Below, one piece after another: positions 1-2,158 of a stretch of 64,000 nt of DNA (positions within the stretch are counted from its first letter, which is position 1; every line of letters starts with the position of its first letter). Where the stretch lies: NCBI GenBank assembly GCA_038140435.1, contig JAYQGE010000005.1, forward strand, positions 2,250-66,249. Direction: 5' to 3'. The translations under genes were made by a program, and so were the position numbers. This DNA comes from Rhodospirillaceae bacterium. GTDB lineage: Bacteria; Pseudomonadota; Alphaproteobacteria; UBA6615. Below the pieces are notes generated by a model. It did no database searches, was not told where the DNA came from, and saw only the letters and a list, made by a program, of their open reading frames with translations.

Positions 1-231
1 CCGGTCGCCGGGCGCGAGCCCCAGGGCCGCGAGCGCGTTCCCCGCCCGGTTCACGCCCTCGGCGAGCTGGGCATACGTCGTGTCGCTGTCGTCGTCACGG
101 ATCGCCACCTTGTCGCCGCGGCCCTCGTCGAGGTGCCGGTCGATGAAGGGCACCGCCACGTTGAACCGGTCGGCATAGGTCAGCGTCGCGGGGCTGGTGG
201 ACGTATCGACGGTGACGGTGTTGGGGGTCAT
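1..231 (-). CDS. Benzoate-CoA ligase family protein, N-terminal part (runs off the left edge)
   Basis: Manual translation from ATG at 231: MTPNTVTVDTSTSPATLTYADRFNVAVPFIDRHLDEGRGDKVAIRDD...TTYAQLAEGVNRAGNALAALGLAPGDR, a typical aryl-CoA ligase N-terminus; lies downstream of boxCB. Confidence 0.8.
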   Translation of the reverse strand, partial: MTPNTVTVDTSTSPATLTYADRFNVAVPFIDRHLDEGRGDKVAIRDDDSDTTYAQLAEGVNRAGNALAALGLAPGDR

Positions 232-253
232 TGGTCGTTTTCCTGCGGATTCA

Positions 254-375
254 ACCCTCTCCCTGTGGGAGAGGGTGGCGAACAACGTGAGCCGGGTGAG
301 GGGTTACGGTTGTCGTGTGTTTGCTCATCGGCGTTTTATCCCCTCACCTAAACCCCTCTCCCCATGGGAGAGGGG
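254..375. repeat. REP-like palindromic dimer (CCCTCTCCC-N3-GGGAGAGGG units with GGTGAGGGG/CCCCTCACC tails)
   Basis: Hairpins accctctccc-tgt-gggagagggt (254-276) and cccctctccc-cat-gggagagggg (353-375); ggtgagggg (295-303) is complementary to cccctcacc (340-348). Confidence 0.9.
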
Positions 376-699
376 CTTTGCGGAACGCGCGGTATTGAGA
401 ATTTCCATCAAGACGCCGTCGATGTTCTCGATAACCTCGTTGTTCCAGAAGCGGATCACGATGTAGCCCATGGATTCCAGTGCTTGTGTGCGCTCGGCGT
501 CTGCTTCGGTTTGTTGTGCATGCTGCCCGCCATCGAGTTCGACGATCAGCTTCTCGGACTCGGATACGAAATCGACGATGTAGCGCCCAATCGGGGTTTG
601 GCGTCGAAACTTGATGCCGTCCAGCTGGCGATTCCGAAGTCGCGACCAAAGGCGTTTTTCGACTTCGGTCGCGTTTCTGCGGAGTTCGCGTTGCCTCAT
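325..699 (-). CDS. DUF559 / Vsr-like endonuclease domain protein
   Basis: LRRNATEVEKRLWSRLR, KFRRQTPIGRYIVDF, LIVELDGGQH, GYIVIRFWNNEV motifs; AGGAA RBS-like site; more AT-rich than flanking genes. Confidence 0.9.
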   Translation of the reverse strand: MRQRELRRNATEVEKRLWSRLRNRQLDGIKFRRQTPIGRYIVDFVSESEKLIVELDGGQHAQQTEADAERTQALESMGYIVIRFWNNEVIENIDGVLMEILNTARSAKPLSHGERGLGEGIKRR

Positions 700-705
700 T
701 TCCTG

Positions 706-735
706 CCGTTACCCCTCTCCATCCGGCGGTGGGGT
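706..735. repeat. Degenerate partial REP-like unit upstream of the DUF559 gene
   Basis: ccgttacccctc (706-717) is the reverse complement of gaggggttacgg (298-309) at 11/12 positions; continues as cccctctcc. Confidence 0.6.
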
Positions 736-739
736 TCTC

Positions 740-2158
<1,419 letters not shown>

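Follow-up and report, generated by a model that had tools for sequence, protein, structure and literature searches.

The window analysed here, a stretch of 64,000 nucleotides from the 2.83-Mb, 82-contig genome G000, carries a gene for a 124-residue DUF559 protein between boxB and the 5' end of a gene of the benzoate-CoA ligase family. These three genes and boxC (TIGR03222) lie on the same strand. The DUF559 frame is the only match to PF04480 in G000, and its G+C content (0.55) is below that of the sequence alongside (0.62-0.69) and of the genome as a whole (0.661). Two hairpins with complementary inner arms lie at the gene's 3' end, and the last 21 residues of the protein are read from this repeat. 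The hairpin pattern occurs twice in the window, both times at this locus, against 0.00 occurrences expected from shuffled sequences. On the 5' side of the gene, a partial unit is complementary to the region of the first inner arm. A sequence-only reading of this stretch had picked out the AT-rich DUF559 gene, its position between boxB and the CoA ligase gene, the two perfect 10-bp hairpins with complementary tails and the upstream partial unit, and each of these features is confirmed by profile matches, base composition or comparison of the arms (Table 1).

Table 1. Genes and repeat features at the boxB-ligase junction, in window coordinates.
Feature	Position	Strand	Description
Benzoate-CoA ligase family gene, 5' end (context)	1..231	-	TIGR02262 E 1.3e-10 on 77 residues in the window
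Whole inserted block	232..743	-	512 bp, between the ligase start codon (229-231) and the boxB stop-codon region; empty sites in relatives
Tail outside hairpin A	232..253	-	22 nt; homologous to the tail of the G000 doublet C13:86855
Hairpin A	254..276		Perfect 10-bp stem, 3-nt loop; arms 254-263/267-276, 10 nt, 100% complementary
Gene-less doublet	255..374		Two motifs face to face; one of five in the genome
Three-block triplex-type motif	256..302	+	Pyrimidine arm, purine arm, 19-nt linker, third block GGTGAGGG; pattern match
Inner arms	295..306 and 337..348		12 nt, 92% complementary
Doublet centre	304..339		36 nt; sequence unlike the other four copies, length identical
DUF559 nuclease ORF	325..699	-	124 aa; PF04480 E 1e-44; PDB 3HRL E 1.6e-28 (phmmer)
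ORF end read from the repeat	328..390	-	Residues 104-124
Three-block triplex-type motif	341..373	-	Hairpin B, short linker, third block; pattern match
Hairpin B	350..378		Arms 350-362/366-378, 13 nt, 92% complementary, perfect 10-bp core
DUF559 domain coding stretch	about 391..693	-	Residues 3-103, profile positions 7-107 of 109
Decayed 5' end motif of the cassette	706..736	-	Third-block and hairpin remnant; 706-720 against 295-309, 15 nt, 87% complementary; 713-733 71% hairpin-like
boxB (context)	740..2158	-	TIGR03225 E 1.4e-238

In the Pfam scan, the DUF559 match scores 151.3 bits against a curated cut-off of 20.6. A second, weak match is to MTES_1575; these were the only two families matched, and the Vsr family model gave no match to the ORF at E ≤ 0.01. 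Across 21 sequences, the nuclease-core columns E56 and H62 are invariant, and D45, D58 and Q61 are conserved in at least 90%. The D, E-x-D and Q-H columns, which we take to be the catalytic ones, are all present in the protein of the window. Its structure model (pLDDT 90.1) finds 3HRL as the first Foldseek match (E 1.9e-8, 46% identity). This entry, which is also the closest solved relative by phmmer, is NGO0050 of Neisseria gonorrhoeae, a structural genomics target titled 'endonuclease-like protein' without a stated function. The second match, and the closest functionally named fold, is the catalytic domain of the homing endonuclease I-Bth0305I of the EDxHD family (PDB 3R3P; E 9.8e-5, TM 0.68, 26% identity), and the third is E. 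coli Vsr (1VSR; E 7.9e-3, TM 0.54). As modelled, the protein has a restriction-endonuclease-like fold, nearer to the homing endonuclease domain than to Vsr. The earlier designation as a PD-(D/E)XK/Vsr-type nuclease stands for the fold and falls for Vsr proper.

The DUF559 protein belongs to the same superfamily as Vsr and as Caulobacter VsrA, which itself carries a DUF559 domain. Genes of Vsr nucleases have an adjacent cytosine methyltransferase partner; unlike them, the present ORF has boxB and the ligase gene for neighbours and no methyltransferase gene beside it. It is matched by none of the defence-system models of PADLOC, and no recombinase gene adjoins it in the window. The ORF is the sole one in the inserted block, which contains no HUH (Y1) transposase. 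Between G000 and its sister species G007, the orthologues differ by 17 synonymous and 5 non-synonymous substitutions, giving a dN/dS of 0.07; the ratio is 0.06-0.18 in the four other DUF559 pairs for which it could be computed. The value of 0.07 indicates that the protein is kept by selection, despite the decay of the 5' cassette motif at this locus.

An insertion between boxB and the ligase gene

Alignment of boxB-ligase junctions reveals that the 512-bp block is absent from 10 of the 11 other genomes of the genus. The spacer at the empty sites measures 15 bp in six genomes and 5-22 bp in others, with lengths of 5, 10, 21 and 22 bp in single genomes, and three genomes of the genus hold unrelated palindromic inserts of 101, 151 and 191 bp at the same junction. 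Among the 11 relatives the block is shared by G007 only, with 92% identity, and DUF559 is present in two. The last sense codon and the stop codon of boxB differ from those of the empty-site versions. All 512 bp of the block were thus inserted here, and they appear by now to be fixed and under selection; the sequence-only reading had envisaged an empty site at this junction in relatives, and the gene is not ancestral here.

Contigs from two independent DNA runs carry only the filled site, at near identity and with no excision joint. In the contigs of four sequencing runs there is no empty-site form and no strand-changing joint. A weakly supported joint of positions 281 and 347 is present in one contig, at a depth of 3.3 and with 25 letters on the shorter side, and probably derives from another copy of the doublet. 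Contigs from an RNA library cover positions 299-376 and 350-494; such contigs are not proof of transcription.

The two ends of the block are differently preserved. The 5' end motif of the cassette is decayed in the window and still more so in G007. At its 3' end the ORF adjoins a complete gene-less doublet, whose plus-strand motif has the position and orientation of the canonical 3' end of a DUF559 cassette. Outside the doublet, the 22-nt tail forms, on the gene strand, a purine run resembling a ribosome-binding site just before the ATG of the ligase gene. The tail of the doublet C13:86855 likewise sits directly ahead of the ATG of another gene, and is missing at the empty sites of G007 and G005. 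Repeat numbers are low in this genus, and G007 has no hairpin outside this locus.

End motifs and gene-less doublets

Eleven hairpins of this type are found in G000. They include a composite unit of 121 bp, present in five copies and made of hairpin, linker, inner arm, centre, complementary inner arm, linker and hairpin. The distance from the first to the last inner arm is exactly 54 nt in all five copies, while the sequences of the centres differ. The dispersed repeat family supposed by the sequence-only reading is present as a genome-wide set of 11 hairpins and five doublets, with gene-less copies scattered through the genome. We considered that the 36-nt centre might be hypervariable or newly generated with every insertion and rejected this, since the centre of the orthologous copy in G011 is still recognisably related and drifts at about the neutral rate.

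Two inward-facing three-block motifs are matched in the window, with none expected, and together they make up the doublet at the 3' end of the ORF. By their sequence pattern, the units are three-block BoxC/PIT/TM intrastrand-triplex motifs and not REP elements. Such intrastrand-triplex repeats were reportedly the subject of an earlier study by Hoyne et al. in 2000, which Holder et al. cite. The published consensus of BoxC/PIT/TM(ECO) is CCCTCNCCC-N3-6-GGGNGAGGG-N3-GGGNGAGGG (Holder et al. 2015, PMC4666352). The units share with these repeats the succession of a pyrimidine arm, a complementary purine arm and a G-rich third block mirroring the purine arm, and also their intergenic and dispersed location, their occurrence in many phyla and their link to locus variability. 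They differ in that the strict E. coli consensus has no match in the window; a slightly relaxed version has three matches elsewhere in the genome. The two units of the window depart from the consensus by a 19-nt second linker in one and by a third block offset by one G in the other. The label 'REP-like' given to them at first has to be dropped in favour of a hairpin with a mirror-symmetric third block. Of the 'inverted REP dimer', the inverted pair remains and the REP identity does not: it is a gene-less doublet, whose centre is the place held by the DUF559 ORF in other genomes.

The sequence of the motif varies among lineages, and the arms of the hairpin covary so that pairing is kept. The relation of the third block to the purine arm can be told where the arm is asymmetric. 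The third block is then a mirror image in 61 cases and a direct copy in 12, the latter mostly where a symmetric core has shifted its register; another 41 cases, being symmetric, are uninformative. Mirror symmetry is a requirement of the purine-motif intrastrand triplex. According to the introduction of PMC4666352, triplexes of this kind are not formed in RNA, and the mirror-matched third block therefore points to a constraint that would act on folded DNA. A triplex was seen in vitro with E. coli oligonucleotides, and its stable formation was unsupported by footprinting in vivo, as described in parts of the same paper. An Rfam scan of positions 150-850 returned only chance-level matches, which fall far short of the gathering scores; none of the known RNA families fits.

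Pairing of nuclease and repeat across genomes

Among relatives, 14 of the 22 strong DUF559 loci have the ORF flanked on either side by perfect stems of at least 8 bp, with 400-460 bp from one to the other, and the remaining eight have one-sided or imperfect stems. Along the gene strand, hairpin, linker and third block are followed by a few bases and the start codon, then by the ORF and its stop codon, and last by the complementary third block, linker and hairpin, so that the ORF takes the place of the short centre of the doublets. Between the third block and the start codon are 2-15 nt, which puts the block where a ribosome-binding site would be expected. An open frame of at least 250 codons runs through the DUF559 match in 14 of 102 loci.

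The layout extends far beyond this group. A wide sample of one genome per species yielded 591 relatives. The 80 loci retained span many phyla and represent Alpha-, Beta-, Gamma- and Deltaproteobacteria, Chloroflexi, Elusimicrobia, Nitrospirales, Binatia and others. The best inverted match between the 160-nt flanks scores at least 14 in 55 of the 73 loci with full flanks, against none of 141 control windows shifted by 900 bp. Inward-facing three-block motifs are present at both ends in 61 of 92 loci, against none of 174 shifted controls. The upstream motif is found in 68 of the 92 loci and the downstream motif in 73, with neither in 12; a single-sided motif occurs once upstream and once downstream in the 174 controls. 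The sequence-only reading had likened the locus to RAYT genes flanked by REP or REPIN units and had anticipated an enrichment of units around DUF559 genes. The counts agree with it on both points, the pairing being non-random and wide. Taken with the layout, they make a partnership of nuclease and repeat well supported; the pairing is real, ancient and widespread.

Co-occurrence was scored in a class sample of 201 genomes from 184 genera, each at least 90% complete, with DUF559 counted at E ≤ 1e-15 and the motif by a relaxed TM pattern that matched in 41 of the genomes. DUF559 and the motif occur together in 30 genomes and are both missing from 141. No motif was found in 19 of the 49 genomes with DUF559, under a pattern that covers only some of the sequence variants, and 11 of the 152 genomes in which no DUF559 was found have the motif. 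The odds ratio is 20, with a Fisher p of 3e-14 that is too favourable, given the non-independence of related genomes. The result stands without G072, a motif-only genome with one match that is flagged as unpublished. In a sample of 61 relatives, at least five hairpins are present in 9 of the 15 genomes with a strong DUF559 match versus 7 of the 46 without. Five repeat-rich genomes, 92-100% complete, lack DUF559 even at E 0.01: three with 47 (G170), 77 (G219) and 19 motifs (G083), and two with 22 hairpins (G033, a closed genome) and 29 hairpins (G034). The expectation that repeat number would track DUF559 is borne out as an association and fails as a strict dependence.

Insertion sites and the proposed spread of the cassette

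Two more filled sites with clean empty counterparts come from other genera. The cassette of G022 (L025) has an empty counterpart in G034, where its flanks are 3 bp apart at an overlapping stop and start codon, and a cassette of G068 has one in G219, with flanks 5 bp apart in a 6-nt carA-carB spacer. At two further sites, the flanks of L006 are on different contigs in G034, and the place of L169 is taken in G219 by 177 bp of unrelated sequence. At the gene-less doublet C13:86855, about 148 bp stand in place of about 10 bp without duplication, the empty sites of G007 and G005 being a 10-bp spacer. The C4 doublet of G000 is common to G011 and absent from G005, and its site is occupied by another repeat family in G007 and G004. 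The relatives examined have neither the C8 nor the C13:70845 doublet at their orthologous sites. Most direct repeats flanking the ORF are palindromic hairpins, and only three are true duplications of the flank, in cassettes that carry 30, 35 and 52 bp of the end of the flanking gene. Unlike classical transposons and MITEs, these insertions have no fixed-length target-site duplication: the junctions show no duplication with a loss of about 10 bp, a 3-bp repeat, or the duplications of 30, 35 and 52 bp. Among nine pairs of loci with at least 75% protein identity, six share their flanks and three do not, and cassette movement therefore appears to be rare.

The best explanation, to which we give a probability of about one half, is a widespread family of cassettes whose nuclease would recognise and cut the folded ends, spreading the cassette and the doublets. 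The canonical cassette would consist of a DUF559 ORF of about 110 codons, coding for a Vsr-like PD-(D/E)XK protein, between two inverted BoxC/PIT/TM motifs, each end comprising a hairpin and a mirror-symmetric G-rich third block turned toward the ORF. The gene-less doublets of about 120 bp would be the same ends after loss of the ORF by deletion. An origin of this kind fits the genome G052, which has a 5'-truncated DUF559 gene between intact motifs and ten doublets with centres of differing length. The nuclease may recognise the hairpin or the intrastrand triplex and cut there, and host repair or replication could turn the breaks into copying and insertion of cassettes and doublets, probably in the main at operon junctions and gene ends. 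In the genus of G000, the gene would by now be a fixed, vertically inherited single copy under selection, by analogy with a domesticated RAYT and its REPINs. There is direct support for the block being an insertion, for a layout that is conserved, for co-occurrence across genomes, for three-way covariation in the end motif and for purifying selection on the protein, whereas nicking of the hairpins or spreading of the repeats by the nuclease is inferred.

Some observations count against mobilisation by the nuclease. A protein of about 110 residues has no evident strand-transfer activity, the five repeat-rich genomes manage without DUF559, movement appears to be rare and the junctions are not uniform. 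The searched motif is missing from 19 of the 49 genomes of the class sample that have DUF559, the contigs of the two DNA runs contain no excision joint, the 5' end motif is decayed here, G007 has hairpins nowhere else, and in-vivo footprinting gave no support for a stable triplex.

A homing-type selfish gene would produce part of the same picture. The nuclease would cut particular chromosomal sites, such as operon junctions like the start of carB, or else empty doublets, and its gene would be copied in when the break is mended by recombinational repair; the motifs would act as arms for homology or insulation instead of transposon ends. The modelled fold, nearer to the I-Bth0305I domain than to Vsr, favours such a role, and junctions without regular target duplications fit break repair. 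I-Bth0305I is intron-encoded and has extra DNA-binding parts; the DUF559 gene, unlike it, is free-standing, codes for about 110 residues and is bounded by inverted repeats, with no intron or intein. I-Bth0305I and the EDxHD family were reportedly studied by Taylor et al. in 2011, who are cited by the authors of PMC9403480. Passages of that paper place a DUF559-containing gene in the EDxHD homing endonuclease family. Of 104 loci, 11 have a carB-type start; in seven of these about 25-90 nt separate it from the cassette, and both orientations and several families are represented. The sites are otherwise diverse, however, and include the box operon, ruvC-ruvA, hsdS and an SDR gene. None of the three clean empty sites has a doublet that could serve as a homing target, DUF559 has entered none of the four other doublets of G000, and the arrival of gene-less doublets at new sites is left unexplained. 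We regard homing as a less likely account of the cassettes.

We are equally doubtful of a scheme in which DUF559 is a passenger. The doublet would then be a miniature element moved in trans by an IS transposase, or a product of replication or repair errors at a polymerase-blocking structure, and the nuclease would have a role of its own, such as Vsr-like mismatch nicking tied to cytosine methylation. The existence of repeat-rich genomes without DUF559 speaks for this, as does the strong purifying selection on a fixed single copy. In Caulobacter, the DUF559 protein VsrA triggers the SOS response when the ScmA methyltransferase is missing, according to PMC12907096, which implies in vivo action of a family member on chromosomal DNA. 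One would not, however, expect a passenger to occupy the same place in the same orientation between motifs across phyla, as DUF559 does in the 61 of 92 loci with both ends. In the loci examined, such ends enclosed no cargo other than DUF559, and here no methyltransferase gene stands next to the ORF. The E. coli motifs, as described in parts of Holder et al. (PMC4666352), have no transposase or integrase remnants and no mobility genes near them.

Programmed inversion of the DUF559 segment by its inverted repeats, as an on/off switch, is very improbable: 'DUF559 domain-containing protein' is 14-fold enriched among predicted programmed-inversion targets in Table 1 of PMC9881135, yet among loci with co-directional neighbours the gene is on their strand in 47 and on the opposite strand in 5, contrary to frequent flipping, no recombinase gene lies beside it here and the contigs of the four runs hold no strand-changing joint. 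An ordinary housekeeping repair gene that stands among REP-like repeats by chance, a reading already disfavoured and just as remote, would agree with the resemblance of the family to Vsr noted in passages of PMC1189080 and PMC3424549, but not with the patchy distribution (2 of 11 other genomes of the genus, 49 of 201 in the class), the arrival of the gene by insertion, the orientation-specific layout missing from all 174 controls or a G+C content below that of the surroundings.

For the cassette reading, a close known parallel lies in the REP/REPIN-RAYT systems. In these, a single-copy, vertically inherited gene under selection, coding for an HUH transposase, is flanked by its partner repeat; the repeat also forms inverted doublets scattered over the genome, and it can outlast the gene. 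The DUF559 cassettes share the single-copy, vertically inherited and selected gene flanked by its partner repeat, the dispersed inverted doublets and the persistence of the repeat without the gene. They differ in their enzyme, a PD-(D/E)XK nuclease and not an HUH transposase, in a repeat that is of the three-block triplex type and not a simple palindrome, and in the canonical location of the ORF inside the doublet. We know of no agreed function for DUF559, which is a very large family, and BoxC/PIT/TM repeats have so far been without a known origin or partner enzyme. Their tight, orientation-specific pairing across phyla offers a testable explanation for both, and would account for the presence of the repeats at unstable loci and at operon junctions. 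More tentatively, BoxC/PIT/TM repeats at large may be gene-less derivatives of a distinct class of mobile or domesticated elements, whose sole protein would be a DUF559 of about 110 residues that recognises triplex or hairpin ends; we regard this wider claim as possible and lend it limited credence. If true, an enzyme would for the first time be found paired in nature with triplex-forming DNA, and RAYT/REPIN would have a non-HUH counterpart. A nuclease that reads the triplex or hairpin fold would also be a new kind of structure-specific tool enzyme.

No published description of the DUF559-repeat pairing was found in a search that covered main texts of papers outside subscription journals. The main text of PMC4666352 contains no occurrence of 'endonuclease', 'ycjD' or 'DUF559'. 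In E. coli K-12, the DUF559 gene ycjD is followed about 170 bp downstream, on the same strand, by a TM(ECO) motif. There is a decayed hairpin at the stop codon of ycjD, and a duplication of its 3' end. In E. coli lineages without eefRABCD, ycjD occupies that place between fabI and sapF, as stated in part of PMC12817139.

Operon junctions as sites of insertion and start codons as possible targets

The junction between boxB and the benzoate-CoA ligase gene, which holds the DUF559 cassette of the window, carries a different palindromic miniature repeat family in three sister genomes (L113 in G001, L114 in G004 and L117 in G010). The site of the C4 doublet, a gene-less pair of facing hairpin motifs in the genome of the window (G000), is likewise occupied by this repeat family in L132 (G007) and L133 (G004). 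These alternative repeats measure about 85-190 bp, and their presence at the same intergenic sites indicates that these operon junctions are struck repeatedly by unrelated small elements.

The start of carB looks like a possible preferred target of DUF559 cassettes. A carB-type start codon is held by 11 of 104 DUF559 loci, and the cassette lies about 25-90 nt from the carB start in seven of the 11. Cassette and carB share an orientation in some families and diverge in the sphingomonads; the carA-carB junction of G219 is empty.

In another compared genome, G052, the short-linker end is preceded by one shared six-base sequence in seven of ten doublets, with a one-base change there in an eighth. 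As these bases include the complement of ATG, the end of the doublet may supply or abut the start codon of the adjacent gene.

Locations of features in the window and in the compared genomes
Feature	Location
DUF559 loci with a carB-type start	L032, L002, L168, L008, L045, L063, L078, L087, L041, L058, L100
G052 doublets bearing on the six-base sequence	L152, L154-L160
Two short metatranscriptome contigs	window 299-494
Repeat next to the C13:70845 doublet	L129:523-586 (G000 C13)
Two identical longer hairpins	G000 C3:63117-63140; G000 C10:55791-55814
Region downstream of ycjD, with the duplicate of its 3' end	L126:4206-4440 (E. coli K-12)

RNA-library coverage of the window

The two contigs, from the metatranscriptome library of run X16, span the inner doublet and hairpin B and also take in the 3' part of the DUF559 ORF; boxB has barely any coverage. 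They may represent an RNA fragment protected by the hairpin, or DNA carried over into the library.

In-frame cassettes and further repeats

Two distinct HsdS-like (type I restriction specificity) genes of G049 (L011 and L027) each have an identical DUF559 cassette mid-gene, read in frame, so that the open frames run to 623 and 612 codons. The cassette between ruvC and ruvA in L028 (G052) is open in frame with ruvC over 332 codons, and ruvA starts a few bases past its 3' hairpin.

The repeat beside the C13 doublet, about 55-60 nt long, recurs in G007, G001 and G011 at 85-96% identity. The longer hairpins of G000, of related sequence type, are solitary and devoid of inner arms; hairpins similar in type flank the DUF559 gene of G017 (L013).

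The E. coli gene ycjD, described in PMC12817139 as found where the eefRABCD operon is absent, is followed by the duplicate of its own 3' end, ahead of a three-block TM(ECO) motif.
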